Shown here in pieces: positions 36,601 through 63,792 of a stretch of 64,000 bases of DNA. How positions within the stretch are numbered: the stretch's first letter is position 1; each line of letters opens with the position of its first letter. Made by a program: the position numbers and the translations under genes. A model generated the notes under the pieces. The model did not search any database and was not told where the DNA came from. It saw only the letters and a list, made by a program, of their open reading frames with translations. Source of the DNA: Nemertoderma westbladi (lineage: Eukaryota; Animalia; Xenacoelomorpha); the NCBI GenBank assembly GCA_032718475.1, contig JAUCBJ010008809.1:1-64000 (forward strand), read 5' to 3'.

Positions 36601-39600
36601 AGAGGGATCCCCAACAAGTGTGTGACTTTATGTTTGGGCTGCTCTAAACACTACCGTTACCAGGCTAGTCTACTGAAACACCAGAAACTCTGCTCGCTGT
36701 ATCAAACTCTAAACAACCGTAGTGCCTTCGACGAACTACCATTCTCAGTCCCACTGTACACAACAACATCGCCATGTATCGAACGTCGGTCTTCAAGCAT
36801 CAACATTCTAACATGGAACGTCGAGGGAATCAGATCTACAGTTAATACAACCACGGACAAAACGTTTGAGCAAACAGACATCCTTCTCCGGCGGAGACAA
36901 TGGTTGAAGACTTGGACTTTCCAGGTTTCACTTGTCACAATGTTGGTAGCATACGTGGCGACCACGGGCGACCTCGTGGCGACCACGGGCAATCTCGTGG
37001 CGACCACGAGCGACCTCGTGGCGACCACGGGCGACCCCGTGGCGACCACGGGCGACCCCGTGGCGACCACGGGCGACCACGTGGCGACCACGGGCGACCT
37101 CGTGGCGACCATGGTCGACCACGTGGCGACCACGGGCGACGACGTGGCGACCAGGGGCGACCCCGTGGCGACCACGGGCGACGACGTGGCGACCAGGGGC
37201 GACCTCGTGGCGACCACGTGGCGACCACGGGCGACCTCGTGGTGGAGTTTCTATTGCGATAAACACTTAATTTAACTTGATACCTCGCAATCGATTATTT
37301 ACAAGAATGATAATCGAATCGCTGTCGACACAAATAATTTATCTGTTATATGCGGATATTACGTTCCCTCTACAGACGTTACGGATATCCTGCATGAACT
37401 AATTACAGCAATAACTACAGTTCGCAATAAATCGAATAATCCAATTGTTCTATCTGGGGATTTCAACTGTAGAATTGACAAGCAATATGATCGTGGTGAA
37501 CTACTATGTAATGGTCTACGTGGTGCTGGTTTTCACTGTCTCAATGACCCATTGATCGCTACTTACATTTCATGGAATGGGGAAAGCGCAATAGAGTTAG
37601 TATTCATTGACGAGGAACTTATAGAAATTTCCACTTTTGATGTTTTACCTACAATGAACACCAAGCATCAACGCGGGTCTCTATACATCTGCTATTGGAC
37701 GATTATCTAAACAAACGAAATGAGAGAACTCCATCAATTAGACGAATTAATGTAGACAAACTTGGGGATATTCTGGACATTAATGAGTTTGAACATCTAC
37801 TCCATGAGGACATTAACACTGCTTGTACTTACCTAACTGACAAGATAGCAGCATCACACCAAACTCCGCGGCCGCGAAAGGCCAACCCTTGGTTCGACAA
37901 GACTTGTTATCTGTCTCGGAAGGACCTTTCAGCAGCCTACCAAGAATAATGAAGGTAAAACCGACGTAGCTAAACCGAGATAACTATAGATTATCACAAA
38001 GATAATACAAACAACTAATTGTTGAAAGAAAGAGGATCTATGAGTCGAACAGGGAACATCGCCTAATCGAAATCTGTGAAACCGAGAAAGATTCGTTTTG
38101 GAATATTCTGGAGACAAAGAAGAATACACAACCAATGGTTCAACAAGTCCAAGAAGAGATTGGTCCCAACACTTTAATAACCTCCTGAATACAACCAAGG
38201 ATACAGTCCTACCAAACATCTATTCTAATCCCTGCGATGATTTGGATAAGCCTATCGAGGCCTCCGAGATAACCTCTGCAGTCAATTCCAACAAGAATGG
38301 GAAGGCACCAGGTCCAGATGGAATTACCAATGACGCACTCAAGGCAGGCTTTTGCCACCTACTGCCATTTCTATTGGCTCTCTTCTCCCTGTGCTTCTCT
38401 GCTGGAGTCTGCCCTCTCATCTGGTTGACCTCTTAAATCATCCCCCTTTACAAGGGCAAGGGCAGCCGATCCTTTCCAGACTGCTACAGAGGCGTGGCAC
38501 CTGTCTGTTGAAGACTGTATACTTCAATTCTTGGCACTCGCTTATACATCTGGGCAGAGTCAAACTCCATATTACCGTGCGCAATACGGCTATCGCAAAC
38601 AGAGATCTACAACTATGGCTGCCAAAGCAATTCACACTATTATTAAGGACGCACTTCAGCCAACAAGGGGTCAGATTTACTGCGTCTTGGTTGATTTTAG
38701 AAAGTGCTTCGACTCTATTAACAGATCAAAAGTATGCTCGAAGTTATCCTGTCTTGGCATCAGTCGAAAATTTATCACCGCGATATGGGCCATACTAGCA
38801 ATAAACTTTGTTTGTATATGTATTGCTGCCCTGTTGGCTTGTTTTACATTTAATGGGGGGCACCAAAACAGATATATTTTCGCAATATAAAATCAATTCG
38901 TGGCTGCTAGATCTCCCATCACTACCTTCACTGAGTGTCAATAAATACGGAATTAAAACTCTTCTAAAACGAAAGAGGTGTAGTGAACAGCAAGATATCT
39001 CAGACGTGGATCTTATAAAAACCTGGTTTATAACTTGTGTATTAAATATGAGGGTTACTACTTTTACTGATTTCGCGTCCAAGCAAGAAGTAATTATGGA
39101 CTATATAAACCAAAGTTAATATAGTCACCGGGGTGTTAGCCATTTAATTGAACTCGGCAATGGTTAATAAATGTATTATGGTTTATTTGTTTCGTTATGA
39201 TGTTTGTAGACCAACAATGTTCTTTTATATTCATTCCGATAGTATGTGTTGCTCTGTGCCTCTATGGTATTTTTACTTAAATGTGTTTGTTTGTAATTCA
39301 GTGCAAAACCATTTTATTATTCTGTGTTCTGGAACCGATCACACAGACCATTGGAGTTATTCAAGGTGACAAGCTATCCCATCCCCTCTCTTATTCACCT
39401 TATTTGTTTCCGACCTCCCTGCAGTTATTATAGCAACTGGATGCCTAATATTTATGTATGCTGACGATCTAGTTATTTGTGGAAATTCCATTGCGCAAGT
39501 TCAGATTGGACTCGATGCATTACTTGACTACTGCAGAGACAACGATCTAACAGTTAATATCTTAAAAACGAAAGTTGTTAAATTCAGACGTGGAGGCCGG

Positions 39601-43999: not shown

Positions 44000-45227
44000 T
44001 GTAAAAGCTTTTACTGAATTGTCCGGTTATTTTTCCTTATTTTTCCCGTAAAGTACTCTGTAGTTGGTTTACCAGGCATAAAAAGGCCGTGTCCTTGCTG
44101 TACTGGTGTTTTAGCGGACATAAAAGCTATTTCTTCTGTATTTGTACTTTAGAGGACATAATCCGTAATTCCGTGACGTAAAAGCTCGATACTCTTGAAA
44201 ACAGTGTCGCTACCATGACGACGGCTAGCAGCTGATATTGCCACGTCGACGTTTCTTTGTTTCTCTGTTCTCTCGTTGTTCATGTTGACCAATCAGAGCG
44301 TTTGTGATCTCTGTGTTGGAGGTATATACAGAAACTCAGTAGTTCAGTGTTATGTTTTTGTCCAGAGCCTAAGAACCGGCTTTGGCACCTCCGTGTTTTA
44401 GTTTTTAGTCTTACACTAGTAGGTTTAATTATAAAGGGCATATATCCTTTAACGCACCTACCTGACTCATGGAATCACTGCATACTGATGACTGATGTCT
44501 GCATACTGCAGTACTGCATACACTGCATACTGTGTAACATTGTGCATACCTTTATATTGTTATACTGCTATTTACCGTCAGTTCTTCATAATATGGTTGA
44601 TGAATAATTATATTTGGAATAACGATAAACAACCCCGAAACCCAATGTTCTTGATATACCGAAGGTAAGAGAGAAGGGTTACAGATAAACGATTGTGACT
44701 TATGTTAAAGTGGTTTGAAGTGAATCTAATGTTATTTGATAGACCCTACATGAGCCAGTCTGTGTTCCTTTTATATGTGACTAAAATCAGTGAAGATCGG
44801 CAGATAAGTGTGCAGTATTGTGCAGCATTGTGTATGAGTGAGTCTGTTAAAGAAGCATTCCTAAAGAATGCGCCATATATGTGAATTATAATTAAGCCAT
44901 ATCGTTGTGAGTGGTTTAAGTCATAACTCTGTTTATATAGATAAAGCGCCACGTCCTAAAGGAACTGTTAATATTCCCGAAGGTGAATAATATTGTCAGA
45001 GATTATATAATACTGTCAGTCGAATAATACATTAGGCTTACATAGCAATAAAATTAAACCGTCGAACCCAATCTCCCGGGAATTTCCAGCGGGTGAATGG
45101 TCGCGCACGGATTGGTTTCGACTAGTGTAGTGAATCAAATACTTGTCAAAGACTAAAAACTGATTTAATATCTAGAAGACATCTTAATTTGGTGGGTTAA
45201 ACTGCCAAAGGTCTGAAAGCGCGAACA
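44000..45227 (+). repeat. 5' LTR of element A
   Basis: TGTAAAAGC...GCGCGAACA; repeated at 51397-52624. Confidence 0.96.
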
Positions 45228-45239
45228 TTAAAGGATATA
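45228..45239 (+). promoter_or_regulatory. Non-tRNA primer binding site of element A (candidate self-priming PBS)
   Basis: TTAAAGGATATA is the reverse complement of LTR 44441-44452 TATATCCTTTAA; there is no TGG start. Confidence 0.7.
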
Positions 45240-45522
45240 GCTTCTTTGTTGCAGTAAGCAATAAAGTTGAAAGTACCGGTCAACCGGTAAACCTGAACCG
45301 GTACATTCTGTAGGTCAGTAGGCCTAACTGTTCTAACCGGTACTTCCGTATAAGTACACTAGTATTATTCGATTTGATTGTTGTATACCGGTAGGCTGTT
45401 TAGGGGATTAGGGATTGATCACCCCTTATTCCTTTATATGGTTTACTTATCTCTGTCAAGTTTTATTTATTTGTAGGCCAGTATTGAACAGAAGGCGTGT
45501 AAACCTGATCAGATTGTACAGA

Positions 45523-46085
45523 CAATTTGTAGGCTGAGCTGTTGTCTGATTGCTGTTAAGTCTGAACGGATTACAGTGTGTGTAGAGCACTTGTCCGATT
45601 AAGTACGATTAGGCAGTAGGGGCAGCGAACGCTGTAAGGTAATCCCCCAACTAAAGAATAAGTCGCACTACTGGGTTAGAGCGCATACTCCCTAATCATT
45701 TCGGAGTCTGCATGTCCTGTGGTTTATTTAGGCTTGAGAGTGGTCTGCCATCGTTTAGTCTGTACTTTGTTGTGTAAGTCTGTACGGGTAGCGTATAATT
45801 TTATTTAGATAATTTGTAGGCTGGATAGTTGTCTGGCTGTTATTAGGTCTGAACGGATTGCCGCGTGTGTAGATCATCTGTCCGATTAAGTACGATTAGG
45901 CAGTAGGGGCAGCGAACGCTGTAAGGTAATCCCCCAACTAAAGAATAAGTCGCACTACTGGGTTAGAGCGCATACTCCCTAATCATTTCGGAGTCTGCAT
46001 ATACCGTAGTTTGTTTAGGCTTGATAGTAGTCTGTCAGTGTTCGGTCTGTATTTTGTTTGAGTAGTTTGTACGCGTAGCGTAATA
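45523..46085. repeat. ~288-bp tandem duplication in the leader of element A
   Basis: AATTTGTAGGCTG...GTAGCGTA occurs twice (45524, 45811); element B has a single copy. Confidence 0.85.
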
Positions 46086-47408
46086 TTTATTATTCAGAGT
46101 TTATGCGATTATCCGCAACATTCAAGTCCCCAAGTTTGTTCCTACAGTAATTGTGTTTGTTATACATACCGCTATAGTTAAATTAACCCCGGTACTACAC
46201 GGGCTGCTCGGCGTAGGTCAAGACTGGTGATTTTGTGCATCGGTCACTCCAGCAGATGCCGTGGTTCTTTTAGCTGTTCAAGTATATTTAACTACTGATT
46301 ATTTGTTATACAAGTACTTGTACCTAATTTAGGGTTTAGTGTACAATACTTTCCGAAGTAATTATTGTAGGCATTATATTTGTGTTGTAAAGTGGTTGAT
46401 AGGCACATTCGATTAGCTCTATTAACTTCTAGGTAGGAACACTCCGTGATACATAACGTAGAACCTATAGCGATACGGCTATAGGTCGTCAGGCGGTGGT
46501 ATTTTCCTATCTAGACAACGCAGTGTATTTACTACTACTTATTATTTCAAATACCGTAGTACCCTGTCCGCTGTGATAACCAGTTTTCTAACCCTTTGTT
46601 AGGCTGGTTTGTAGACTTCTTGTAAAATTACCCTAAAAATTCGTATTTTGTGTTTTTTGTAAATTTTTGTGTTTATTTAGAGATTGTAATCTCAACCCGA
46701 ATTGTACGTAATTTGTAGTATAAGTAACTTAGGTAAATTAGTAATATTTGTTTTAGTGTCCTATAAGTAACACTTCACTGAAAGCGCACCGCTTTGTGTA
46801 GTGATTACTCCCCAGAAATAATAACATTTATTTCAAACATTGACAAAACCCATTAAAACGGGTATATATATATTATAAATCAAATCTAACGATTTATAAA
46901 TAGTAGGCCTACCATACAACCATTAGGTCTCAATATCAGTTGGATTATTGCTTAAATAACGGTAATAAAGTAAGTTAAAGTAACCAAGTAACCCTAAAGT
47001 TCAGAAATTCAGTTATTTTAAAATAATTGATATACCGGTATTTATGATAGGCCTATTATCTTTATTTCTATAATCTAGGCTGAAATTATACCGGTACGTG
47101 TAATTAATTCTATTTCAGAATTATATATACTACAAACTGTAAGCTGTATACCGGTATTCCGATAGGCCTATTATATTTTTATATATATTTGTGCTAAAAT
47201 TATACCGGTATTCTGAGATAAACCTAGTCTGTAATAATACTTATATAGTTATATATACTATAAGCATACCGGTATTCTAATATATTATATATATCACGCT
47301 ACACTGAGTAGCAGTACCGGTAATTAATTACTAGGCTAGCAGTTAATACTGAGTTACTAGACTTGCTCAGACTGTAATACAGCAGTAGACATTCAACTGT
47401 ACACAAAC

Positions 47409-48329
47409 ATGTCTGACGCAAAGCAGAACCTGTCAGACAGTCTACTAGATACAACGGAGAGTGAAGCGACATTAGAGAAACGGCCTGCTCAACCGCAGCC
47501 ACTACAGACCTATGCGGTAAGAACTAGAGTAGGTTGGTACCTTACTGGACCTTCCGGTAGAACGCTCAGGGAAAGACTGCTTCAAGATCGCGTCTGCCAG
47601 ATGAGTGAATGGGAAGATGATACTAGTGAGGGAGACGACCCAACTGAGGGAACACCACACTCCTCAGATAATGACAATCTTAGCTCCAATGTAGATCAAT
47701 GGAGATATTGCCCCAAGAAGTTTAATCCAACGGACATCGCTTCCAGAGGAGCAACTCCTCAAGAACTGACAGATACTACAGACCGATTAGGTGAACCCGA
47801 CTTCCTGAGTAAGGAGAATGAATGGCCTCCCCATCTTACTCCGACTGAGATTATACCAGCCAAGGGAGCGGAGAAAGTCGAACCTGAAACCCGGACGTGT
47901 GGATCGGAGTTATTTGAACCCGGGATAGATCTGTCGGTATTACATGTTGCCAGGGACGACGCCGTGGATCTGGGCCTCCCCACCGCGAGTGGATCCTTCA
48001 TGAAGATCAGAGAGAGCGATTGGAGCTCTGGAACATCAGACGTCTCGCAGGGACTCTCACCTCTCCTGCAGAGAGCGACGGACCACTATAGCTCCTGGAA
48101 TCGGCTTTGTGACGCCGTCATATACTTTGAGCGATGTTTCTATCGTCACTATTCCAGGACGAAGAGGAAACCTGGAATTGTATTCAGGATGCAGCGACTC
48201 AATCACCCAGTCGGTCGTTTGTGTTTATCGGAAGGGAATGGAGGACTCTCCGGAAACTGTGGAAGGCAAGATTCTCTTCCCACGACCACCTCCCTAATCC
48301 TTCAAACATCTAGGGACTCCATAACGTAA
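47409..48329 (+). pseudogene. Internally deleted gag-pro ORF of element A (306 aa)
   Basis: N-terminal 14 aa, ESEAT and the C-terminal ~285 aa are collinear with the 1638-aa ORF of element B. Confidence 0.85.
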
Positions 48330-49957
48330 CAACATATGGAGTGGGTGTGTGACTCTATTATTTTATATTATTTTATTATTTTTATATTTCTGTATGTATT
48401 ACTATGTAATTTTATTATAATCGTTTTCTTTAATTTTATTCAGTAGAATGTTATTTTAGCGATTATTTAGTAGATTAGTGCAATATATATTCGCGTTTAT
48501 TACTTAATTACATATATATTATATTTAATGAGACGGCAAGAAATAATTCTTTTTCTCTTTCCTTACTGTCCGTATTACATTACAAATACGTAACTACAGT
48601 AAGATGAAATGTCCGTACTTATTAAAGTACAATAAAGCCACTACTATATTCAAGTATTATTGGTAGGCAGAGTATTAGGAATGCAAAGTTCAGATCCTCG
48701 TGTCTCGGCTAAACCAAGCTCTGGGTAGACCTTGGAAACGACTTGCCTCTTCACACTGACATTGCTTCGTGCGATATTGCTCTCATACCGTATATTAAAT
48801 AATACATATAGTAGCGTGATGTCCCTTTAACAGTAGCGTATAACGCAAAATAAATCTGTTAAACCCTTTGACCATCTGTAATTCTAGTCGATTAAGATAT
48901 CGTGGCACCCACCGATATACTTGAAAGACAAATTATAGAATCAATGGTTAACGTCACCAGACAAGTTCTGGAATAAATCGGTGCCCATCTCAAATATTAA
49001 TTATTTAATATTTGCAAATCTAATACGTCAAAATCTGTAAAATTCAGATCCTTTAACAATTCTAGTCGATTAAGATATCGTAGCATTTACCGATATTCTT
49101 AAAAAGACAATTGTCATAGAATTAAGGATCTTGTGTCCCTAGACATGTTCTAGAATCAAAATATGTCCATTTAATTATCAAATAATAAAATTTCAGGGAA
49201 TAAATTTAAATTCATGTCTTTTAATGAATTTAATAAATTGCCATTTTACGCAATTTATAACATTCCCAAAATTCCATTAATTAATAGATCAAGGGAGCGG
49301 AGATTTATATTATTATGCGTATGCGTGTACGAAAGTCTCCCAAACATAGTCAATAGCCGATAAAATTCATAAAGTCATGTATAAAACCGAACATTGACTA
49401 TTAAAGAATACTATTAAATAACATCCCAGATCTGTATGCATTGGAACTACCCTAATTCTACCGCTAGCTTTGCATAATGTCACCATAGCAACAACCACGC
49501 TAGAATTAGAATTGAGTTAACGAAAAATAGAAAGCCTGTCCCATTGAATAGCATAGGGAATAAATAGCGCACTACTAGTATCCAAGGATACATAATAATA
49601 CAGTGACATTCTGGAAGGCATTGACTAACGGACAAATGGCCCGAATGTGTGTAATTTGTGACAAGTTGTGTGTGTGGTATTTGTGAGTTTATAGGTGAAT
49701 GTTACTGCTAAGGTGTGTTTACAGTAGCTAGTCGCAATCGTAAAAGTAACCTAACTCTCCAAGGAAAACCTGAAGTACATCTAAGTCTTTGGGACGGACA
49801 GTCGAGTGACTTGTGTCGGTTGTCGTTGTCGTTGTGCGGCTACGTCGTTGGCGAAAGTACAGCGGCGACGACACATCGGCGCTGAGGATCTCGTACTGTC
49901 CGGGGGTTAATTGGAGTAGGCAGCGACGCTTGCTAGCCTGAATATAAACTCCTTATA

Positions 49958-50290
49958 ATGTGGATAAACTCATATATAGCAGACATGATGGAGTTGATAG
50001 CAGATGTTCTTGGTATCGGGGAGCGATATACTCTACTTTTGCAAGCGTTTGTTGATAGCTTAATACGCGGCGACGTTAGTCCAACTGCTGCGGAGGACGA
50101 TGGTCGTTATATCGAACCGCCAATGTCCCAAGAGCAGCTCGCGCGCGAGTTGGACTATAGAAAATTCGCTGCTCGATATACGCAGCGTAATGGTACGTAT
50201 ATGGTCTTCTTAACCACTGGTCATCCTATCGATTTACACAATACTGACTATGTCGACTATATATCCTGCCCAGCGGAGTCGGAACCATAA
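49958..50290 (+). CDS. Hypothetical 110-aa ORF in the extra 3' region of element A
   Basis: ATG-initiated, non-repetitive and protein-like in composition; no motif recognised. Confidence 0.3.
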   Translation: MWINSYIADMMELIADVLGIGERYTLLLQAFVDSLIRGDVSPTAAEDDGRYIEPPMSQEQLARELDYRKFAARYTQRNGTYMVFLTTGHPIDLHNTDYVDYISCPAESEP

Positions 50291-51396
50291 ACTGAAATCC
50301 GAATGCGAAAATTCTATTCGAAATCGACTCGAAAGAAAAGGCACTAAAGAAACAAATAAACGCGGTAACTCCAACGTATATTTGGAATTCTTGATAGAAT
50401 CATTGTAACTACAAATAAATATCATCCGCGTTTCCCCTACCAGACGTGCGTCTTGGGTATTATTACGGTAAATGCCCTAGACCCAGCCAATAAACGGAAA
50501 GACATAAACATCCACGGAAACGTTGTGTTAAATACAGTTGTGTTCGTTATATTTACTGGAGTTTCGAGCGAAACTTGTTTGACGTATCACCTATGCTCAC
50601 TCGGCTCTAACGATCCTAGAGTAAACCTACGATCAGAGTCCCGGAATACTCGGTCAAACCTCCTCATTCCTTAGTTGGACCTCAGACCTGCGATCCTGGT
50701 GGTGTCGCGGATCCTCGCGGACGGTATTCACTGTTCAAAGATCTAGTGCTACCCTAACAATTAATCGGTAACACTCCGACAGTGATTTCTAGCTAGCCGC
50801 CCATCTTACCTAGCCGGATTGTGACGCGGACACCTAATATCACTATCCAACCGTATGGTCGTCCCCGTTTAACGCGATACAACCCCTCATCAAGGTGAAG
50901 GAGAGCTTTGTACGAAACGAGTTAAACGCTATTCTATAAAGATCAAAAGAGAAACCTGCGTTTGTTCAGATAAACGTAAGTTATAACAGTAAGTCCAGTC
51001 GATAAACGAATTGGCCTTATCTCAATTCGATTGGGAAATCCAGAATCTCTAAGAAGTTATCGAACTTGGACGATCCTATTCTCTGCGAGAGTTTTTGGAT
51101 GAACGTATCCAGCTACGAGCGGAGGAAAATCAGCTCGAGGAGAAGCATATCGAAACGGCAGATACCTCGACCATAAACCTACACCTTCTGATGCAATCAT
51201 ATTGCACCCTTCACCCAGGAGTTATGGCCCTCCTAGTAAAGTGGCTCCCCCCAAAGAGAAAAAGACTCTTGCTAGCCTCAAAAAACTGCGTAAACGCCGT
51301 CTGCGTAAGAAAGACTAACTGTTTAGAGTATCTTTATGTTTTAGAAACTGTGATTTTTATATTTTATAGACTGAAAATCCCATTTTCTGGGAGCGG

Positions 51397-52624
51397 TGTA
51401 AAAGCTTTTACTGAATTGTCCGGTTATTTTTCCTTATTTTTCCCGTAAAGTACTCTGTAGTTGGTTTACCAGGCATAAAAAGGCCGTGTCCTTGCTGTAC
51501 TGGTGTTTTAGCGGACATAAAAGCTATTTCTTCTGTATTTGTACTTTAGAGGACATAATCCGTAATTCCGTGACGTAAAAGCTCGATACTCTTGAAAACA
51601 GTGTCGCTACCATGACGACGGCTAGCAGCTGATATTGCCACGTCGACGTTTCTTTGTTTCTCTGTTCTCTCGTTGTTCATGTTGACCAATCAGAGCGTTT
51701 GTGATCTCTGTGTTGGAGGTATATACAGAAACTCAGTAGTTCAGTGTTATGTTTTTGTCCAGAGCCTAAGAACCGGCTTTGGCACCTCCGTGTTTTAGTT
51801 TTTAGTCTTACACTAGTAGGTTTAATTATAAAGGGCATATATCCTTTAACGCACCTACCTGACTCATGGAATCACTGCATACTGATGACTGATGTCTGCA
51901 TACTGCAGTACTGCATACACTGCATACTGTGTAACATTGTGCATACCTTTATATTGTTATACTGCTATTTACCGTCAGTTCTTCATAATATGGTTGATGA
52001 ATAATTATATTTGGAATAACGATAAACAACCCCGAAACCCAATGTTCTTGATATACCGAAGGTAAGAGAGAAGGGTTACAGATAAACGATTGTGACTTAT
52101 GTTAAAGTGGTTTGAAGTGAATCTAATGTTATTTGATAGACCCTACATGAGCCAGTCTGTGTTCCTTTTATATGTGACTAAAATCAGTGAAGATCGGCAG
52201 ATAAGTGTGCAGTATTGTGCAGCATTGTGTATGAGTGAGTCTGTTAAAGAAGCATTCCTAAAGAATGCGCCATATATGTGAATTATAATTAAGCCATATC
52301 GTTGTGAGTGGTTTAAGTCATAACTCTGTTTATATAGATAAAGCGCCACGTCCTAAAGGAACTGTTAATATTCCCGAAGGTGAATAATATTGTCAGAGAT
52401 TATATAATACTGTCAGTCGAATAATACATTAGGCTTACATAGCAATAAAATTAAACCGTCGAACCCAATCTCCCGGGAATTTCCAGCGGGTGAATGGTCG
52501 CGCACGGATTGGTTTCGACTAGTGTAGTGAATCAAATACTTGTCATAGACTAAAAACTGATTTAATATCTAGAAGACATCTTAATTTGGTGGGTTAAACT
52601 GCCAAAGGTCTGAAAGCGCGAACA
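51397..52624 (+). repeat. 3' LTR of element A
   Basis: Near-identical to 44000-45227 and followed by the TSD GTAGG. Confidence 0.96.
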
Positions 52625-52857
52625 GTAGGCCTTATACAGGCTACACTACAATACAGTAGCTACGGTACTGTGGCGAAAACTAGGCCTAGGCGTCGTAGTT
52701 TTAAGAGTCCTTCGATGTAGTAACACCAGCTGTTACCGAAGGGAATGCAACGATGTGACGGCTACCAATGTAGAGGTAGTTAAGATATTTCTTTAACGTA
52801 TTCGACTGCTCGTGAGGGGATACGGACCATTCCGGACCCAGACAATTCTAAGGAGCG

Positions 52858-54032
52858 TGTTCGCGCTTTTAGACCTTTGGCAGTTTAACCCGCCAAATTA
52901 GGATGTCTTCTAGATAATAAATCACTTTTAGCCTCTGACAAGTATTTGATTCACTACACTAGTCGAAACCAATCGGTGCGCGATCATTCACCCGCTGGAT
53001 ATACCCGGGAGATTGGGTTCGACGGCTTAATCGTATTGCTATGTAAGCCTAATGTATTATTCGACTGACAGTATTATATAATCTCTGACAATATTATTCA
53101 CTTTCGGGGAATATTAACAGTTCCTTTAGGACGTGGCGCTCTATCTATATAAACAGAGTTATGACTTAAACTACTCACAACGATATGGCTTAGTTACAAT
53201 TCACATATATGGCGCATTCTTTAGGAAATGCTTCGTTATCAGTCTCACTCATACACAATGCTGCACAATACTGCACACTGATCTGCCGATCTTCACTGAT
53301 TTTAGTCACATATAAAAGGAACACGGACCGAATCATGTAGGGTCTATCAAATAACATTAGATTCACTTCAAACCACTTTAACATAAGTCACAATCGTTAT
53401 ATGTAACCTTTCTCTCTTACCTTCGGTATATCAAGAATATTGGGTTTTCGGGGTTATTTATCGTTATTCCAAATATAATAATTCATCAACCATATTATGA
53501 AGAACTGACAGTAAATAGCAGTATAACAATATAAAAGTATGCACAGGTTGTTTGATTAGGTATGGTATATTATGTTTAGATAACGGATATATGTCCTTAT
53601 AATTAAGCCTACTAGTGTAAGACTAAAAACTGAAAACACGGAGGTGCCAAAAGCCGGTTCTTAGGCTCTGGGCAAAACATAACACTGAACTACTGAGCCT
53701 CTGTATACACCTCCAACACAGAGACAACAAACGCTCTGATTGGTCAACCGAACAACGAGAGAACAAAGAAACAAAGAAACGTCGATGTGGCAATATCAGC
53801 TGTTAGCCATCGTCATGGTAGCGACACTGTTTTCAAGAGTATCTAGCTTATCGCGTCACGAGATTGTGGATTATGTCCTCTAAAGTACAAATACAGTACA
53901 AATACATAAGAAATGACTTTTATGTCCTCTAAAACACCAGTACAGCAAGGACACGGCCTTTTTATGCCTGGCAAACCAACTACAGAGTACTTTAAGGGAA
54001 AATAACCGGTTAATGACGCAAAAGCTTTTACA
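52858..54032 (-). repeat. 3' LTR of element B
   Basis: Reverse strand reads TGTAAAAGC...GCGCGAACA. Confidence 0.96.
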
Positions 54033-55625
54033 CCGCTCCCAGAAAATGGGATTTAAGTCTATAAAATATAACAAATCACAGTTTCTAAAATATAAAAATA
54101 CTCTAAAAAATCGTAAAAATACGACAACGACAACCGGCACAAGTCACTCGACTGTCCGTCCCAAAGGCTTAGATACACCTCAGGTTCTTACTGGAGAGTT
54201 AGGGTTACTTTCACAATTGCGACTCGCTACTGTAAACACACCTTAGTAGTAACATTCGCCTATAAACTCACAAATACCACACACACAACTTGTCACAAAT
54301 TACCCACACTCGGGCCATTTGTCCGTTAGTCAATGCCTTCCAGAATGTCACTGTATTATTATGTATCCTTGGATACTAGCAGTGCGCTATTTATTCCCTA
54401 TGCTATTCAATGGGACAAGCTTTCTATTGTTCTTTTAACTCAATTCTAATTCTAGCGTGGTTGTTGCTATGGTGACATTATGCAAAGCTAGCGGTAGAAT
54501 TAGGGTAATTCCAATGCATACAGATCTGGGATGTTATTTAATAGTAATTCTTTAATGGTCAATGTCCTGTTTTATACATGACTTTATGAATTTTATCGGC
54601 TATTGACTATGTTTGGGAGACTTTCGCACACTCATACGCATAATAAGATAAATCTCCGCTCCCTTGATCTATTAATTAATGGAATTTTGGGAATGTTATA
54701 AATTGCGTAAAAATGGCAATTTATTAAATTCATTAAAAGGCATGAATTTAAATTTATTCCCTGAAATTTTATTATTTGATAATTAAATTGACATATTTTG
54801 ATTCTAGAACATGTCTGGGGACACAAGATCCTTAATTCTATGAAAATTGTCCTTTTAAGAATATCGGTAAATGCTACGATATCTTAATTGACTAGAATTG
54901 TTGAAGGATCTGAATTTTACAGATTTTGATTTATTGGATTTGCAAATATTAAATAATTAATATTTGAGATGGGCACCGATTTATTCCAGAACTTGTCTGG
55001 GGATGTTAACCACTGATTCTAGAATTTGTCTTTCAAGTATATCGGTGGGTGCCGCGATATCTTAATCGACTAGAATTACAGATGGTCAAAGGGTTTAACA
55101 GATTTATTTTGCGTTATACGCTACTGTTAAAGGGACATCACGCTACTATATGTATTATTTAATATACGGTATGAGAGCAATATCGCACGAAGCAATGTCA
55201 GTGTGAAGAGGCAAGTCGTTTCCAAGGTCTACCCAGAGCTTGGTTTAGCCGAGACACGAGGATCTGAACTTTGCATTCCTAATACTCTGCCTACCAATAA
55301 TACTTGAATATAGTAGTGGCTTTATTGTACTTTAATAAGTACGAAGATTTCATCTTACTGTAGTCACGTATTGATAATGTAATACGGGCAGTAAGGAAAG
55401 AGAAAAAGAATTATTTCTCGCCGTCGCACTAAATATATAATATACGTAATTAAATAATAAACGCGAATATATATTGCACTAATCTACTAAATAATCTCTA
55501 AAATACCATACTACTAAATAAAATTAAATAAAACGATTAAAATAAAATTACATAATAATACATACATAAATATAAAAATAAAACAAATACAAAATAATAG
55601 AGTCACACACCCACTCCATATGTTG

Positions 55626-58600
55626 TTACGTTATGGAGTCCCTAGATGTTTGAAGGATTAGGGAGGTGGTCGTGGGAAGAGAATCTTGCCTTCCACAGTT
55701 TCCGGAGAGTCCTCCATTCCCTTCCGGTAAACACAAACGACCGACTGGGTGATTGAGTCGCTGCATCCTGAATACAATTCCAGGTTTCCTCTTCGTCCTG
55801 GAATAGTGACGATAGAAACATCGCTCTAGGTACACGATGGCCTTACAAAGCCGATTCCAGGAGCTATAGTGGTCCGTCGCTCCCTGCAGGAGAGGTGAGA
55901 GTCCCTGCGAGACGTCTGATGTTCCAGAGCTCCAATCGCTCTCTCTGATCTTCATGAAGGATCCACTCGCGGTGGGGAGGTCCAGATCCACGGCGTCGTC
56001 CCTGGCAATATGTAATACCGACAGATCTATCCCGGGTTCAAATAACTCCGCTCCACCCGTCCGGGTTTTAGGTTTAACTTTCTCCGCTCCCTTGGCTGGT
56101 CTAATCTCAGTCGGAGTAAGATGGGGAGGCCATTCATCCTCCTTACTCAGGAAGTCGGGTTCACCTAACCGGTCTGTAGTATCTGTCAGTTCTTGAGGAG
56201 TTGCTCCTCTGGAAGCGATGTCAGTTGGATTAAACTTCTTGGGGCAATATCTCCATTGATCTACATTGGAGCTAATATCGTCATTATCTGAGGAGTATGG
56301 TGTTCCCTCAGTTGGGTCGTCTCCCTCACTAGTATCATCTTCCCATTCACTCACCTGGCGGACGCGATCTTGAAGCAGTCTTTCTCTGAGCGTTCTTCGG
56401 GAAGGTCCAGTAAGGTACCAACCTACTCTAGTTCTTACCGCATAGGTCTGAAGTGGTTGCGGTTGAGCAGGTCGTTTCTCCAATGTCTCCAGCGCCTCAT
56501 GCGCGTTTTGACCGATTAATATTTGTACTCCAGGATAATCGGTGTCGAATCTAGGGATGTTAAGTTGTTGGGCATGATCATCTTCGTCCCAATTATAAGG
56601 TTCCACTTGGGTGGTAGCGAAGTTCTTTATTGCCACCATTTTGACTGACCTTATACTGTATTCTCCTAGTTTATCCTGTGGAGTGGACAACTCACCTATA
56701 TAATAGTCGGCAGCTACAGTAGAATTCCAAACCTGCATGATCCCTGACATGTTTAGCTTGGTTCGGAACTTGGGTTGTCCAGCAAAGATGACTTCGGCTA
56801 GTTCTTTATCGATGAATGTTCCTGTGCTACCGGAGTCCAGGAGGGCGTTCACTATATAGCTCTTCTGAGGTCCGTGGACCCGTAACTGGACTACAGGAAA
56901 TTCTCGGATTCCTATATTGGAAGTTGGCGCTTTCCAAGATGGTTGTTGATCAGAAGTAGTTAAGGTAAGGTCGCTGTCTGTGTCTTTCTCATGCACGAGT
57001 GCTCGATACACTGCGGTGGTGTTTATTAGGTAACAGGATTCGTTTTGGTCGGAGAACTCGTCCGTATAGAATCCTTCCATCTCAGATTGATCAGTGTCGT
57101 TCACATCACTGAATTGGACATGTAGTTCGGAATCACTTACCTGATTCGGACTATTTCGCTCGAATTCAGCGTGCAACAAGATATGATGTTTCGCACCACA
57201 CTTTGCACACCTTATGTCAGAGTAACAGGTTCGCCGTTGGTGTCCTTGTCTGAGGCAATTATAACACAACCGCTTGTCCCACATGACTTCACGTCTCTCA
57301 GTTAATGATTTCTTTAGAAATTCATCACACATATTCAAGCGATGGGTCCCATCACATAGCGCACATTTTGGTTTGATGTTACTCACCTTAATCTGAGTCA
57401 CATTGTGTACACTTGCCTTTTCTTCGGGCTTTCTCACCTGAATTCTCTTGGGAGACGTAGGAGGAGTTTTTCTTACCTGTTCTCTCCTGTCATTTGTTCG
57501 AGACTTGAATTTACTTACCTGATCTTTAGGCATTTTATTTACGTAATAAGATCTATCAGTGTCTTTCCCGCTATCTTCTCCTTGAGAAGTCTGGCTTTCA
57601 CCGTCGTCTGTATAACACACTGGTGTTACCTTTCTCCTAGAGACGGGTTTTTCACTTACCTTGTTTTCCGGTGTCTTCTCTCTGGACAGTTTCAGGAGCT
57701 GTAATTTCACTTCTCCATCTAGGAATGACATGAGATCAGCCATGGTAGGGTCTCGTTGTTGTTGTTCCATCATATATAACACTTTCTTATCCCAGCGTGT
57801 ACCTACTCCACCTTTCGGTAAAGTAGAAGCCACTGCTCTAATAACCATAGTGTTCTGATACTCATGAGACTTACCTAGCCAATCTAATTGTCTGCAGATC
57901 TCCTGGATCTCATCGGAAAACTCGATAATCCCGCTGCTAATAAACTTTCGGGGCGCTATCAACTTTGCATACAAATACCCAGCGATGTTATTCCTATTAC
58001 CATACCTTATGTTTAGTGTATCCCAAACTTGTCTTAATCCGTCTGGATGTCCAATAAACTTTAACGCCATTAACTTGGGAGATCCTTCCAAGCACTCGAT
58101 GAGGAATCTAAGTTTCTCTCCATTAGATAGCACAGAGTTCTGTATGTTATCTTTGTAATATTCATTAAAAGGTAACCATTTCATCTCATCTCCATTGAAC
58201 TTGACGATCTCTCCCACCTTTACCGCTTGCCGGGCTTCGGTTCTAGCCATTTGATGCGTAAAACTTTCTTGGGCCATCGTGTTATTTAATATTGAGTTAT
58301 CGGTATATAAATTTCTCGGATTATGATCCGGTCTATAGGGAATATCATTATCAACAGGTCTATAATTACCCTTAATAGGGTTCACTATAGGAGTTTCTAC
58401 TTCGCTAGCAGTATAGATGCGTGTAGGCTCCACACCTTGCGCATGAGATACTTCAGACCTAACAGGTTGACACATTGTTACAAGGGGTGGTGGTATACCC
58501 TTTTGTAAATTTACTAATTTATCGCGTTCTAGCGCGATATTTTGCTGCACTTCCTGCAACTCTAACCTACTTTCCTTTACGGTTCCCTTTAACTGTTGAA

Positions 58601-60542
58601 CAGTCCCTTCTAACTCTCGGACCTGTTGGGAGGAGCGCCTTTGATTCTCCTCCATCTTTCCGAGGAGAATGTCCATCCCCCGCCGTCTCTCGTCTACCCA
58701 ATCAACCGCCGAAACGGGATCCGCCAACGTTGTAGCGGGCGGACGAGGGACAACGGGCGACAAATCATGAATATTTCGCTCGGAGTCCAGAGCATGAACT
58801 GTCTCATGGGCTGTTCTGCTGGGCACAGTTAGCTTAGTGCTGTGCAAAGGGAATTGAGAGGTAGGTTCAGGGAGTACAGGTGTCTCTACGACCGAAAGTG
58901 TGACTTCGGGAACAGGCCTAACTATTTCAGGCTCATCTACTATAGTAGGGAGTCTCTCTATTGTAATTATTTGGTCTGTGGGTTCTGTACTCGCTAAGTT
59001 GGTGTTATTTAGTTGCCTTCTAACAGCTGGAGGCAAATCAGGCAATTTCTGATGGTGGAATGTTCTTTTACGTCTGCTTAGGCGAGATCGATTTCCTCCG
59101 GCTTCAGTGTCGGTGGTATCGCCTTCCTCAGATGATGTATAACCCTGTCTTTTGGGAGTAGATCGATTCATCATCTGCATATTACTAGCTGTTAACTGTT
59201 TACTGAAGTCGTCTTGCTTCTCTTGAAGATTTTCCAACTCCAGTTGGGCGATCTCTTCAGCCGCTCTCCGTTCTGCTTCCGCCACCGCTGCCGCTTTTGC
59301 CTCTGCCGCTGCCGCTGCTGCCGCTTCCAAGGTCGCTTTTCTTTCTGCCTCTGCCACTGCTGCTATCTTTCTGTCTTCTATACGTTTTTTCTTTACCTTT
59401 TCTTCTTGGTCTCTAGCGATGCGGAGTTGTTCATCGAATTTAGCTTGGTTCGCCGCTAACCTATCCACATCAATTGCATCCAACACACGCTGGGCTCCTT
59501 CACTATTAGGGCTAAGTCCCGCTAGCCTTCTCCTCAACTCTTCATCTCCCAAAAAACGCTGATAGTCTGACAGATAGATGTCAATGGCATCCCTCTTATG
59601 CGGTTTCTCTGCCGTCGCTTCACTTTCCACTTGGGAAAAAGTAGCGTCCGTTGATTCTCCATGGGTTGAGCGCTCCTCCAGCTGAGCTTTCCACTGAGCT
59701 GTTCCTTGAACCTGGCGACTCACCCGTTGAAACCAAGTCTTTACGGCAACTTGCAACGACGTGTCTTGTCTTCTTTTAGAAGCCTCTTCAAAGGCTGATA
59801 ATATTAGCCTGATTCGCAGAATTCTTTCTCTAACTTGATAAAGCAGTTGTCCCTGCTCTTGAGGTCCTTTGGGTTGTTGAAACAGTTGTTTTTCTACTCG
59901 CTCCATAGAGCTGAAGAATCCCTGTGCGTATCCGGCTGCGGACCTCTTCCACACAGCTGGATCGATGGTTTCCTTGGCTACTCCCATCCGGTGTATGTCT
60001 TCCCAGGCAGCTTCTGATAAATCAAATGGGAGTCCGGGTCCGGGGAAGTTCCATTGTGACTCGACCATAGACTTCAGCTCTTCCCTTGTGTATCCCTCAT
60101 AGCTATCTTTAGTGGCTCGCTTACTTCTCGCCCAATCGATCTGGTGTTCTTCCACCGCGATCAATAACCTAGTGAGTACGGCTGCAGGAAGGATGAGAAG
60201 GGGATCTGAATAAGCCGCATCCGTCATCCTTGCTCCGCGTTCGGGTGTCAGTTCTACTGTATCTTCACTACTGGAGCTGTCGGGCCGCTGAGAAATAAGT
60301 TCTTGGCTCGCGGGTGGTTGCTGTTCCGCTGCTTCTTGGTCCCGCTTGACCTGAGCTCGAGTGCCTATGATAGACCTACGATGTTGGACCAGCCTAGGTT
60401 CTGTTATTACTACTGGAGGGATGACCTTCCTCACAGTGGGAGGTGAACTGAACTTAGGACTAGACGGTTCTACACCTCTATCTGAGTCGCAGATAGTTAC
60501 ATCTAATAAACTGTCTGACAGGTTCTGCTTAGTATCAGACAT
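55626..60542 (-). CDS. BEL/Pao Gag-protease polyprotein lacking RT, RNase H core and integrase (1638 aa)
   Basis: Gag-like core KFNGDEMKWLPF...EKLRFLIECLEG, three Cys/His knuckles (CALCDGTHRLNMC, CYNCLRQGHQRRTC, CAKCGAKHHILLH), protease ALLDSGS, then WRYCPKKFNPTDIASRG. No YxDD motif or integrase. Confidence 0.92.
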   Translation of the reverse strand: MSDTKQNLSDSLLDVTICDSDRGVEPSSPKFSSPPTVRKVIPPVVITEPRLVQHRRSIIGTRAQVKRDQEAAEQQPPASQELISQRPDSSSSEDTVELTPERGARMTDAAYSDPLLILPAAVLTRLLIAVEEHQIDWARSKRATKDSYEGYTREELKSMVESQWNFPGPGLPFDLSEAAWEDIHRMGVAKETIDPAVWKRSAAGYAQGFFSSMERVEKQLFQQPKGPQEQGQLLYQVRERILRIRLILSAFEEASKRRQDTSLQVAVKTWFQRVSRQVQGTAQWKAQLEERSTHGESTDATFSQVESEATAEKPHKRDAIDIYLSDYQRFLGDEELRRRLAGLSPNSEGAQRVLDAIDVDRLAANQAKFDEQLRIARDQEEKVKKKRIEDRKIAAVAEAERKATLEAAAAAAAEAKAAAVAEAERRAAEEIAQLELENLQEKQDDFSKQLTASNMQMMNRSTPKRQGYTSSEEGDTTDTEAGGNRSRLSRRKRTFHHQKLPDLPPAVRRQLNNTNLASTEPTDQIITIERLPTIVDEPEIVRPVPEVTLSVVETPVLPEPTSQFPLHSTKLTVPSRTAHETVHALDSERNIHDLSPVVPRPPATTLADPVSAVDWVDERRRGMDILLGKMEENQRRSSQQVRELEGTVQQLKGTVKESRLELQEVQQNIALERDKLVNLQKGIPPPLVTMCQPVRSEVSHAQGVEPTRIYTASEVETPIVNPIKGNYRPVDNDIPYRPDHNPRNLYTDNSILNNTMAQESFTHQMARTEARQAVKVGEIVKFNGDEMKWLPFNEYYKDNIQNSVLSNGEKLRFLIECLEGSPKLMALKFIGHPDGLRQVWDTLNIRYGNRNNIAGYLYAKLIAPRKFISSGIIEFSDEIQEICRQLDWLGKSHEYQNTMVIRAVASTLPKGGVGTRWDKKVLYMMEQQQRDPTMADLMSFLDGEVKLQLLKLSREKTPENKVSEKPVSRRKVTPVCYTDDGESQTSQGEDSGKDTDRSYYVNKMPKDQVSKFKSRTNDRREQVRKTPPTSPKRIQVRKPEEKASVHNVTQIKVSNIKPKCALCDGTHRLNMCDEFLKKSLTERREVMWDKRLCYNCLRQGHQRRTCYSDIRCAKCGAKHHILLHAEFERNSPNQVSDSELHVQFSDVNDTDQSEMEGFYTDEFSDQNESCYLINTTAVYRALVHEKDTDSDLTLTTSDQQPSWKAPTSNIGIREFPVVQLRVHGPQKSYIVNALLDSGSTGTFIDKELAEVIFAGQPKFRTKLNMSGIMQVWNSTVAADYYIGELSTPQDKLGEYSIRSVKMVAIKNFATTQVEPYNWDEDDHAQQLNIPRFDTDYPGVQILIGQNAHEALETLEKRPAQPQPLQTYAVRTRVGWYLTGPSRRTLRERLLQDRVRQVSEWEDDTSEGDDPTEGTPYSSDNDDISSNVDQWRYCPKKFNPTDIASRGATPQELTDTTDRLGEPDFLSKEDEWPPHLTPTEIRPAKGAEKVKPKTRTGGAELFEPGIDLSVLHIARDDAVDLDLPTASGSFMKIRESDWSSGTSDVSQGLSPLLQGATDHYSSWNRLCKAIVYLERCFYRHYSRTKRKPGIVFRMQRLNHPVGRLCLPEGNGGLSGNCGRQDSLPTTTSLILQTSRDSIT

Positions 60543-62606
60543 GTTTGTTTACACAGTTGAATGTCTACTGCTATATTACAGTCTAAGCAAGTCTAGTAAT
60601 TCAGTGTTAACTGCTAGCCTAGTAATTAATTACCGATACTGCTACTCAGTGTAGCGTGATATATATAATATATTAGAAAACCGGTATGCTTATTGTATAT
60701 ATAAGTATTATTACAGACTAGGTTTTTCACAGAAACCGGTATATAATTTTAGCACAAATATATATAAATATATAATAGGCCTATCGGGAATACCGGTATA
60801 CAGCTTACAGTTTGTAGTATATATAATTCTGGACTAGAATTAATTACAAGTACCGGTATAATTTCAGCCTAAATTTATAGAAATAAAGATAATAGGCCTA
60901 TCGTAAATACCGGTATGCAGTTTACACTTATAGTGTATATATATAAGTATAATTACAAACTAGAATTAATTACAGAATACCGGTATGATTTCAACCTAAA
61001 ATTTATAGAAATAAATATAATAATAAGCCTATTGTAAATACCGGTATATCAATTATTTTAAATAACTGAATTTCTGAATTTTAAGGGTTACTTGGTTACC
61101 TTAACTTACTTTATTGCCGTTATTTAAGCAGTAGTCCAACTGATATTGAGACCTAATTGTTGTATGGCAGGCCTACTATTTATAAATCGTTTGAGTTGAT
61201 TTATAATATATATATACCCGTTTAATGGGTTTTGTCAATGTTGAAATAAATGTTATTATTTCTGGGGAGTAACCACTACACAAAGCGGTGCGCTTTCAGT
61301 GAAGTGTTACTTATAGGACACTAAAACAAATAATGCTAATTTACCTAAGTTACTTAATACTACAAATTACGTACAATTCGGGTGAGATTACAATCTCTAA
61401 ATAAACACAAAAATTTACAAAAACACAAATATGAAATTTTAGGGTAATTTTACAAGAAGTCTACAAACCAGCCTAACAAAGGGTTAGAAATCTGGTTATT
61501 ACAACGGACAGGGTACTACGGTATTTGAAAATAATAAGTAGTAGTAAATACACTGCGTTGTCCAGATAGGAAAATACCACCGCCTGACGACCTATAGCCG
61601 TATCGATATAGGTACTACGTTATGTATCACGGAGTGTCCCTACCTAGAAGTTAATAGAGCTAATCGAACGTGCCTATCAACCACTTTACAACACAAATAT
61701 AATGCCTACACTAATTACTTTCGGAAAGCACTGTACACTAAACCCTAAATTAGGTACGAGTACTTGTACAACATATAATCAGTAGTTAAATATACTTGAA
61801 CAGTTAAAAGAACCACGGCATCTGCTGGAGTGACCGGTGCACAAAATCACCAGTCTTTACCTACGCCAAGCAGCCCGTGTAGTACCGGGGTTAATTTAAC
61901 TATAGTGGTATGTATAACAAACACAATTACTGTAGGAACAAACTTGGGGAATGAATGTTGCGAATAATCGCATAAACTCTGAATAATAAATATTACGCTA
62001 CGCGTACAAACTACTCAAATAAAATGCAGACCAAATACTGACAGACTACTATCAAGCCTAAACAAACTACGGTATATGTAGACTCCGAAATGATTAGGTA
62101 GTATGCGTTCTAACCCAGTAGTACGACTTATTCTTTAGATGGGGGTTTACCTTACAGCTTTGGCTGCCCCTACTTCCTAACCGTTCTTTATCGGACAGAG
62201 GCTCTACACACACTGCAATCCTTCAGACCTAATAACAGCCAGACAACTATCCAGCCTACAAATTGTCTGTACAATCTGATCAGGCTTACACGCCTTCTGT
62301 TCAATACTGGCCTACAAACAAATAAAACTTGACAGAAATAAGTAAAAATCTCAATAAAAAACCAGGGCTGCAGTCCCTGATTAATTATTAAGGCCTACCG
62401 GTATATAATTATCAAAATCGAATAATACTGCTGTACCTGTACTGCTGTAGGTACCGGTCCGGGTGGTTAGGTAGTCAGGCCTACTGGGTACCGGTTGCCG
62501 GTACTTCAGCTTTATTGCCTACTGCAATACAGAAGCTATATCCGTTATTGTTCTTACCAGAACAATATTAAACTGTATTTAATGCCTACACTGCAATACA
62601 GACTAA

Positions 62607-62617
62607 ATATCCGTTAT
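62607..62617 (-). promoter_or_regulatory. Non-tRNA primer binding site of element B (second copy at 62537-62548)
   Basis: Element-sense ATAACGGATAT is complementary to its own LTR segment (element-sense TATATCCGTTAT, 63340-63351). Confidence 0.7.
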
Positions 62618-63792
62618 TGTTCGCGCTTTTAGACCTTTGGCAGTTTAACCCGCCAAATTAGGATGTCTTCTAGATAATAAATCACTTTTAGCCTCTGACA
62701 AGTATTTGATTCACTACACTAGTCGAAACCAATCGGTGCGCGATCATTCACCCGCTGGATATACCCGGGAGATTGGGTTCGACGGCTTAATCGTATTGCT
62801 ATGTAAGCCTAATGTATTATTCGACTGACAGTATTATATAATCTCTGACAATATTATTCACTTTCGGGGAATATTAACAGTTCCTTTAGGACGTGGCGCT
62901 CTATCTATATAAACAGAGTTATGACTTAAACTACTCACAACGATATGGCTTAGTTACAATTCACATATATGGCGCATTCTTTAGGAAATGCTTCGTTATC
63001 AGTCTCACTCATACACAATGCTGCACAATACTGCACACTGATCTGCCGATCTTCACTGATTTTAGTCACATATAAAAGGAACACGGACCGAATCATGTAG
63101 GGTCTATCAAATAACATTAGATTCACTTCAAACCACTTTAACATAAGTCACAATCGTTATATGTAACCTTTCTCTCTTACCTTCGGTATATCAAGAATAT
63201 TGGGTTTTCGGGGTTATTTATCGTTATTCCAAATATAATAATTCATCAACCATATTATGAAGAACTGACAGTAAATAGCAGTATAACAATATAAAAGTAT
63301 GCACAGGTTGTTTGATTAGGTATGGTATGTTATGTTTAGATAACGGATATATGTCCTTATAATTAAGCCTACTAGTGTAAGACTAAAAACTGAAAACACG
63401 GAGGTGCCAAAAGCCGGTTCTTAGGCTCTGGGCAAAACATAACACTGAACTACTGAGCCTCTGTATACACCTCCAACACAGAGACAACAAACGCTCTGAT
63501 TGGTCAACCGAACAACGAGAGAACAAAGAAACAAAGAAACGTCGACGTGGCAATATCAGCTGTTAGCCATCGTCATGGTAGCGACACTGTTTTCAAGAGT
63601 ATCTAGCTTATCGCGTCACGAGATTGTGGATTATGTCCTCTAAAGTACAAATACAGTACAAATACATAAGAAATGACTTTTATGTCCTCTAAAACACCAG
63701 TACAGCAAGGACACGGCCTTTTTATGCCTGGCAAACCAACTACAGAGTACTTTAAGGGAAAATAACCGGTTAATGACGCAAAAGCTTTTACA
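62618..63792 (-). repeat. 5' LTR of element B
   Basis: Near-identical to 52858-54032. Confidence 0.96.

Follow-up and report, generated by a model that had tools for sequence, protein, structure and literature searches.

The first bases past the 5' LTR of two related LTR elements, here called A and B, are complementary to a segment within the LTR of the same element, and the two positions at which the elements differ in this site are both compensated in the segment. The complementarity is a real, non-random feature. We consider it probable that the family is primed by its own RNA in some form; the more specific reading, in which a 5' piece of the element's transcript would prime minus-strand DNA as in Tf1, has our slight preference.

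Elements A and B and their classification

Comparison of the window (the whole stretch of DNA analysed, 64,000 nt) with itself revealed A and B as related LTR elements lying tail to tail. Their parts are the following.

44000..52624, plus strand: element A, an LTR element of 8625 bp with the 5-bp target duplication GTAGG
44000..45227, plus strand: 5' LTR of A, 1228 nt, TGT...ACA
51397..52624, plus strand: 3' LTR of A, with a second copy of the putative primer segment at 51838-51849
51389..51396, plus strand: short purine tract of A, adjoining the 3' LTR
47361..48329, plus strand: remnant reading frame of A, 322 codons, late pol stretch only
52858..63792, minus strand: element B, 10935 bp, LTRs of 1175 nt, target duplication CGCTC
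62618..63792, minus strand: 5' LTR of B, 1175 nt
52858..54032, minus strand: 3' LTR of B, with a second copy of the putative primer segment at 53591-53580
55626..60548, minus strand: open frame of B, 1640 codons, with Gag (PF03564), Cys-His motifs, protease and a late pol stretch

Each element has TGT...ACA termini, is flanked by target duplications of 5 bp, and carries a short purine tract ahead of its 3' LTR. The two LTRs of A mismatch at 1 of 1228 positions and those of B at 2 of 1175, so both insertions are young. They are separated by 233 bp (52625-52857).

The proteins place the elements in BEL/Pao. The PF03564 match covers residues 784 to 911 of the B frame (E value, 1.6e-10), and all 19 homologs of B region 760-1340 carry PF05380 or PF03564, with identities of 22 to 38%. 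A profile made from 16 BEL polyproteins matched B residues 1026 to 1388, the protease, with an E value of 7.7e-43, the Pfam protease match by itself being below the cut-off. The same profile found Gag, protease, and one late pol stretch in B and the late stretch alone in A; its positions 619-1163 and those beyond 1275, with the reverse transcriptase (RT) core and integrase, had no match in either element. With RT and integrase missing, A and B are non-autonomous derivatives of BEL/Pao, dependent on RT, RNase H, and integrase provided in trans, and we class them as such and not as complete belpaovirids, the PR-RT-RH-INT order being incomplete. Of the characters that define BEL/Pao, they possess the Gag type and a protease after Gag (both in B), TG...CA LTRs, the purine tract, and the target-site duplication; they lack an 18-nt site that would pair with the 3' end of a host tRNA. 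Since their homologs are BEL/Pao polyproteins, they do not have the proteins of Ty3/gypsy chromoviruses. Protein searches found no close relatives (identities, 22 to 39%), an exact 29-base LTR-end pattern gave 0 matches in metagenome contigs, and the BEL profile yielded no confirmed relative in viral contigs; an autonomous relative was likewise not retrieved.

Several other features accompany the two insertions. The 1640-codon frame of B stays open despite the missing RT and integrase, and over its first ~640 residues the fit to the BEL profile is poor or absent. Ahead of its 3' LTR, element A carries 1.5 kb (49833-51322) that is missing from B and contains frames of 117 and 131 codons, without a Pfam match; the leader of A contains a tandem duplication of 287 bp (45519-46098). 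About 1 kb from A, at 42718-43026, a frame resembling a host exon contains a laminin G domain (PF02210). Broken frames at 37276-39100 resemble, by eye, pieces of a LINE endonuclease and RT, and tandem arrays, with units that include ~55 and 72 bp, occupy 13166-15397, 21069-22450, 24813-26489, 28119-31734, and 32095-36143.

The LTR edge and its complement within the LTR

The sequences that pair, and the variable blocks that follow the LTR segment, are these.

45228..45239, plus strand: primer-binding position of A, flush with the LTR end, without TGG
44441..44452, plus strand: putative self-primer segment of A, LTR 442-453, exact reverse complement of 45228-45239
62607..62617, minus strand: primer-binding position 1 of B, flush with the LTR end, 11-base match
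62537..62548, minus strand: duplicated site 2 of B, 12-base match, preceded, like site 1, by GAACA
63340..63351, minus strand: putative self-primer segment of B, LTR 442-453, reading TATATCCGTTAT (63351-63340)
44453..44540, plus strand: variable block of A, LTR 454-541, 88 nt, with short ACTGCAT-type repeats, non-homologous to the block of B
63306..63339, minus strand: variable block of B, 34 nt, without G, with short CATAC-like repeats

The site of A reads TTAAAGGATATA, begins at the first base past the 5' LTR, and matches LTR 442-453 at 12 of 12 positions, exactly as the first-pass annotation had described. For B, which the annotation had treated as equivalent, the LTR segment was found where it had been placed, while the flush site turned out to match over 11 bases only, its 12th base being a mismatched T; the copy that matches at 12 of 12 is site 2, 69 nt downstream of site 1. 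Also borne out was the claim that the elements differ at two positions and that both are compensated: the differences fall at site positions 1 and 5, and the partner LTR positions 453 and 449 change in step. Elsewhere the aligned LTRs of A and B mismatch at 65 of 1112 positions (5.8%). In both elements the end of the duplex coincides exactly with the LTR boundary, the geometry proposed for a primer, and the reported lack of a TGG-type tRNA site held as well, with no TGG in the first 120 nt past the LTR of A and the first one in B at +59. Segment and site are ~775 nt apart, with intron-like stretches between them.

The leader of B (62617-62537, minus strand) carries a duplication that covers the primer site and the ~30 bases next to it, with a fold-back of the LTR end and site between the copies. 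Because GAACA precedes site 2, priming there would give a longer LTR that still ended in ACA; the duplicated arrangement was absent from the read-table matches listed.

The expected number of chance matches is 2.8e-4 for the 12-mer in the LTR of A and 9.3e-4 for the 11-mer in that of B. In sets of 5000 simulated LTRs, a match of 12 bases arose in 1 (A) and a match of at least 11 bases in 5 (B). Only 2 of 6139 internal start points in A reached 12, one of them being the primer site. Each element has one further internal 12-mer that matches its own LTR. The chance that the LTR changes would match the site changes lies between 2e-4 and 1.7e-3, depending on the model.

Six public runs contain the stretch, all as contigs and none of them recorded as RNA, and two of them (X1 and X2) come from one sample. 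Across 45196-45272 in X1, X2, and X3, just two substitutions were listed at a level of at least 1%, and both are the letters of B: 45228 T>A, with 27, 43, and 38% of the summed depth, respectively, and 45232 A>C, with 25, 33, and 27%, summed depth not being equal to copy number. Since the B letters are the only polymorphisms listed in the site, A and B represent two common alleles rather than private mutations, and the mismatch at position 12 of B is not common. A further substitution, 45248 G>A, is present in another listing and missing from this one, so apparently just the centre of 45196-45272 was scored. The unequal shares at the two positions (e.g., 38 versus 27%) may reflect an allele with a single change or contamination from the flank at position 1. 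The allele evidence thus covers two alleles of one family, and site and LTR segment are linked in A and B alone, as the contigs are too short. On the LTR side, the 40 of 161 substitution rows listed include no shares for 44441-44452; among the matches listed, the B-type segment occurred in one X6 contig and one X4 loose end. At 45231, several contigs in X1, X2, and X3 follow the LTR end for four further bases before they continue with varied sequence, possibly because of a preferred target context or another type of site. Longer contigs of a more divergent subfamily, ~80 to 85% alike, cover 44641-44960 in X3, X4, and X6.

The only non-homologous block in the alignment of the A and B LTRs starts at LTR 454/455, which is the predicted end of the primer, and in the X6 contig a third continuation comes after the B-type segment. 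Apart from matches of 11 to 13 bases, the rest of the window offered no source for either block. Where reverse transcriptase runs off the end of its template and jumps, untemplated additions and slippage are known to arise, and a variable block at 454 suggests that the copied RNA may end near that base. The position of the block would be compatible either with a cut at 453/454 or with a capped start there.

A candidate own-RNA primer and competing explanations

Under the slightly preferred reading, LTR 442-453 would pair with the first 11 or 12 bases past the 5' LTR in a transcript that starts at or upstream of LTR 442, and the duplex would form inside the particle. RNase H from an autonomous relative, acting in trans, would cut after the duplex as in Tf1; once the RNA was cut or trimmed at LTR 453/454, a 3' OH would remain on the first base outside the LTR. 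Strong-stop DNA would then run to base 454 and jump to the 3' LTR; a jump at this base would create an error-prone junction and so could explain the variable block. Plus-strand synthesis would copy the primer and rewrite the binding site, whereby any change in the LTR segment would enter the site automatically. As such copying would give covariation without selection, the covariation would mark the direction of information flow, not a constraint. The position of annealing at the LTR edge defines the LTR end, and the 3' sequence of the primer must therefore equal LTR 442-453 in each subfamily; the element's own RNA is the simplest source of such a primer. The self-priming proposed in the first-pass annotation is partly upheld: at the DNA level it fits the position, the geometry, the compensation, and the lack of a tRNA-type site, and the family-wide polymorphisms in the site and the start of the variable block at the predicted primer end add to this.

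The signals that bear on the start, folding, and splicing of the RNA are listed below.

44289..44348, plus strand: putative promoter-like motifs from a motif scan, CCAAT (LTR 290), TATATA (324, A only) and TCAGT (337, 345)
44430..44435, plus strand: TATAAA at LTR 431 (TATAAG in B), a possible TATA box or weak poly(A) signal
44432..44440, plus strand: upstream extension predicted to pair (G:U, bulge) with the bases just past the site of A; weak and short
44665..44742, plus strand: putative intron-like segment in the LTR, with a GTAAGA donor, a CTAAT branch-like motif and a TAG acceptor, kept in B
44838..44940, plus strand: second putative intron-like segment in the LTR, kept in B
45241..45254, plus strand: splice-acceptor-like pyrimidine tract and CAG, directly past the primer site

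The promoter-like motifs permit three different starts and suggest one near 350 or near 460. In nested folding of A, the pairing probability was 0.98 to 0.99 for RNA starts at LTR 429-443 and near 0 for most starts upstream of these, with 0 throughout 331-401. For B, it was 0.88 to 0.89 with site 2 for starts at 429-443 and 0 with site 1 for every start tried; forcing the pairing cost 4.7 kcal/mol (B site 1, start at 442) or 12 to 16 kcal/mol (start at 347). Because folds of 800 nt are unreliable and both pseudoknots and chaperoning by Gag are ignored, these values neither prove nor refute the pairing. In duplex prediction, each site paired better with its own segment than with that of the other element (-11.6 versus -6.5 and -12.5 versus -7.3 kcal/mol), and the primer segment was the best partner of the 12-mer anywhere in its element; the 12-bp duplex itself is A/U rich and weak. 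Helices of at least 10 bp, G:U pairs included, number 60 in A and 56 in B. One of those in A could join LTR 399-421 (44398-44420) to LTR 1122-1164 (45121-45163), crossing the primer duplex to form a pseudoknot; being one of 60, and weaker in B, it was not counted as evidence.

The intron-like segments of the LTR, together with the acceptor-like motif, suggest a possible spliced message without the primer site. Among the matches listed there was no intron-less DNA joint for these segments. We considered priming across a splice junction in this family and rejected it: the segment is contiguous, and removal of both intron-like pieces leaves the predicted pairing unchanged. There is no splice donor at the primer end, no GT following position 453.

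One explanation, which we regard as unlikely, though less so than those taken up below, involves a different RNA start. A start near LTR 460 would leave the primer segment outside the RNA 5' end and present in the 3' LTR alone, so that self-priming would have to use the other copy of the segment, at the 3' end of a second packaged RNA or on a short LTR transcript, cut or trimmed at 453. The TATAAA at LTR 431 would place the start there, inside the variable block, which would then mark the capped end, and the motif scan found no TATA-like motif 25 to 30 nt upstream of LTR 442; given the great abundance of the family in the runs, its LTR transcripts could also act in trans. On the other hand, B reads TATAAG at the same position, the accessible parts of the literature contained no precedent, and cutting the 3' copy would destroy the repeat needed for strand transfer, for which a second, intact RNA would be required.

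It is improbable that the pairing, although real, is structural, serving circularisation, packaging, or a splicing or translation switch beside 45241-45254, with some other primer in use. The pairing can be extended upstream with G:U pairs, an acceptor-like motif follows the site, intron-like segments lie in the LTR, and a conserved hairpin occupies the primer-binding position of the fungal GalEa elements, according to the available text of PMC5445492. Nevertheless, any primer must anneal at the LTR edge, and in both elements the complementary bases fill that very place, with no spacer and with the duplex ending at the boundary; no other primer site was found near the LTR ends.

Somewhat more improbable still is priming by a host RNA (a tRNA fragment or a small RNA) or by an element-derived small RNA to which the LTR segment would merely be similar. 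Half-tRNA primers do occur in copia lineages, as described in the available portions of PMC6317226 and PMC5445492. Yet neither allele starts with TGG, so neither fits a CCA end, and the two alleles would call for two host RNAs, each with its counterpart in the corresponding LTR. If the alleles are read as anticodon loops, C stands in both of them at position 33, where tRNAs nearly always carry U. No tRNA-like piece was detected by Rfam in 43500-64000, where three sub-threshold matches were taken as chance, or by ARAGORN in the window; a tRNA was also absent from 20 loci examined. Finally, a functionless chance match or one-off local inverted duplication is hardly credible, for although G:U-tolerant helices of at least 10 bp are as frequent as given above and each element has its one other LTR-matching 12-mer, the position was biologically fixed in advance, the joint probability of a chance match with compensation is of the order of 1e-7 to 1e-6, and both alleles are common in two samples.

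Priming by a 5' piece of the transcript can be developed further, in a version that we advance only tentatively. A and B would belong to a divergent BEL/Pao lineage that lost tRNA priming independently of Tf1/sushi, and a capped fragment of ~100 nt from the element's own 5' end would mimic a tRNA, with its 3' end on the site and LTR 399-421 on LTR 1122-1164, the cut being recorded as the hypervariable block. The second of these contacts may be likened to the extra primer contacts of retroviruses.

Relation to other retroelements

As a control, 80 metagenome BEL loci were collected with patterns from distant BEL proteins, and 25 were dropped because the match lay at a contig edge or in mid-protein. 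A TGG site 1 to 9 nt past the CA of the LTR was present in 33 of the 55 loci examined, as judged with a motif list that was written in part after loci had been viewed, and on control LTRs that were often partial. No call was made for the other 22, some of which had no LTR end and some a TGG site by eye. In every one of the 33 loci with a TGG site, self-complementary bases numbered 7 or fewer. Two of 25 loci reached 10 such bases after any CA, neither of them convincingly. These loci are distant from the family of A and B and give the ordinary state of BEL elements, not that of near relatives.

That BEL/Pao elements are described as tRNA primed, as the first-pass annotation had stated, agrees with the ICTV profile of the Belpaoviridae (genus Semotivirus), in which a host tRNA binds a site of 18 nt and replication is said to be poorly understood (PMC8742986). 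Canonical members share with the family of A and B the Gag of PF03564, the protease, the TG...CA LTRs, the purine tract, and the 5-bp duplication; they have a tRNA site, whereas A and B have neither this site nor RT and integrase. The BEL-group Cer elements of Caenorhabditis elegans are reportedly unusual, with a tRNA-like primer that is possibly encoded by the element and would itself be a form of own-RNA priming. That primer is said to differ from the one proposed here in being tRNA derived and lying outside the LTR.

A literature search of limited coverage found no report of self-priming in BEL/Pao, and an earlier one may exist. None is contained in the available parts of PMC3601003, PMC5445492, PMC2864245, PMC5443660, PMC13524379, PMC8220671, or PMC3286476, and the terms PBS, tRNA, and priming are absent from the BEL/Pao surveys PMC3118150 and PMC554778.

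Outside BEL/Pao, self-priming has been predicted, as here, from sequence alone for the Tcn1 chromoviruses and for the TAR lineage (Houba, Osr-1) of Ty1/copia, in the available text of PMC6317226; unlike A and B, these are gypsy and copia lineages of plants and fungi. The fungal GalEa copia elements resemble A and B in lacking a tRNA site and in having reverse-complementary sequences at the primer-binding position, and they differ in that the partner sequence lies outside the LTR and the site is palindromic, as far as the accessible text goes (PMC5445492). Since self-priming has already been proposed outside Tf1/sushi, a further origin would be less surprising.

If the reading is true, tRNA-free priming would have arisen independently once more, in a family of animal elements that is abundant and recently mobile, and LTR finders for which a tRNA site is obligatory would overlook self-primed elements. 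Self-primed elements would also escape control by tRNA fragments. The mechanism being known from Tf1 and predicted elsewhere from like evidence, the surprise would be limited. The Tf1-type primer is said, going by the title of Atwood-Moore 2006, to stay on the DNA.

The closest parallel is with Tf1 itself, whose priming uses the first 11 bases of its own RNA, released by an RNase H cut, according to the available portions of PMC7175516 and PMC4600332. As described there, Tf1 and Tf2 of Schizosaccharomyces pombe and Tj1 of S. japonicus have, like A and B, a site complementary to their own LTR and no tRNA site, the complementarity covering 11 bases in the Tf1 group (PMC7175516, PMC4600332). Tf1/sushi elements belong to Ty3/gypsy, whereas the family of A and B has BEL/Pao proteins and a gap of ~775 nt between segment and site. 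Judged by its DNA, the family appears Tf1-like in all respects that can be read at that level, and it is not a member of the Tf1/sushi group.
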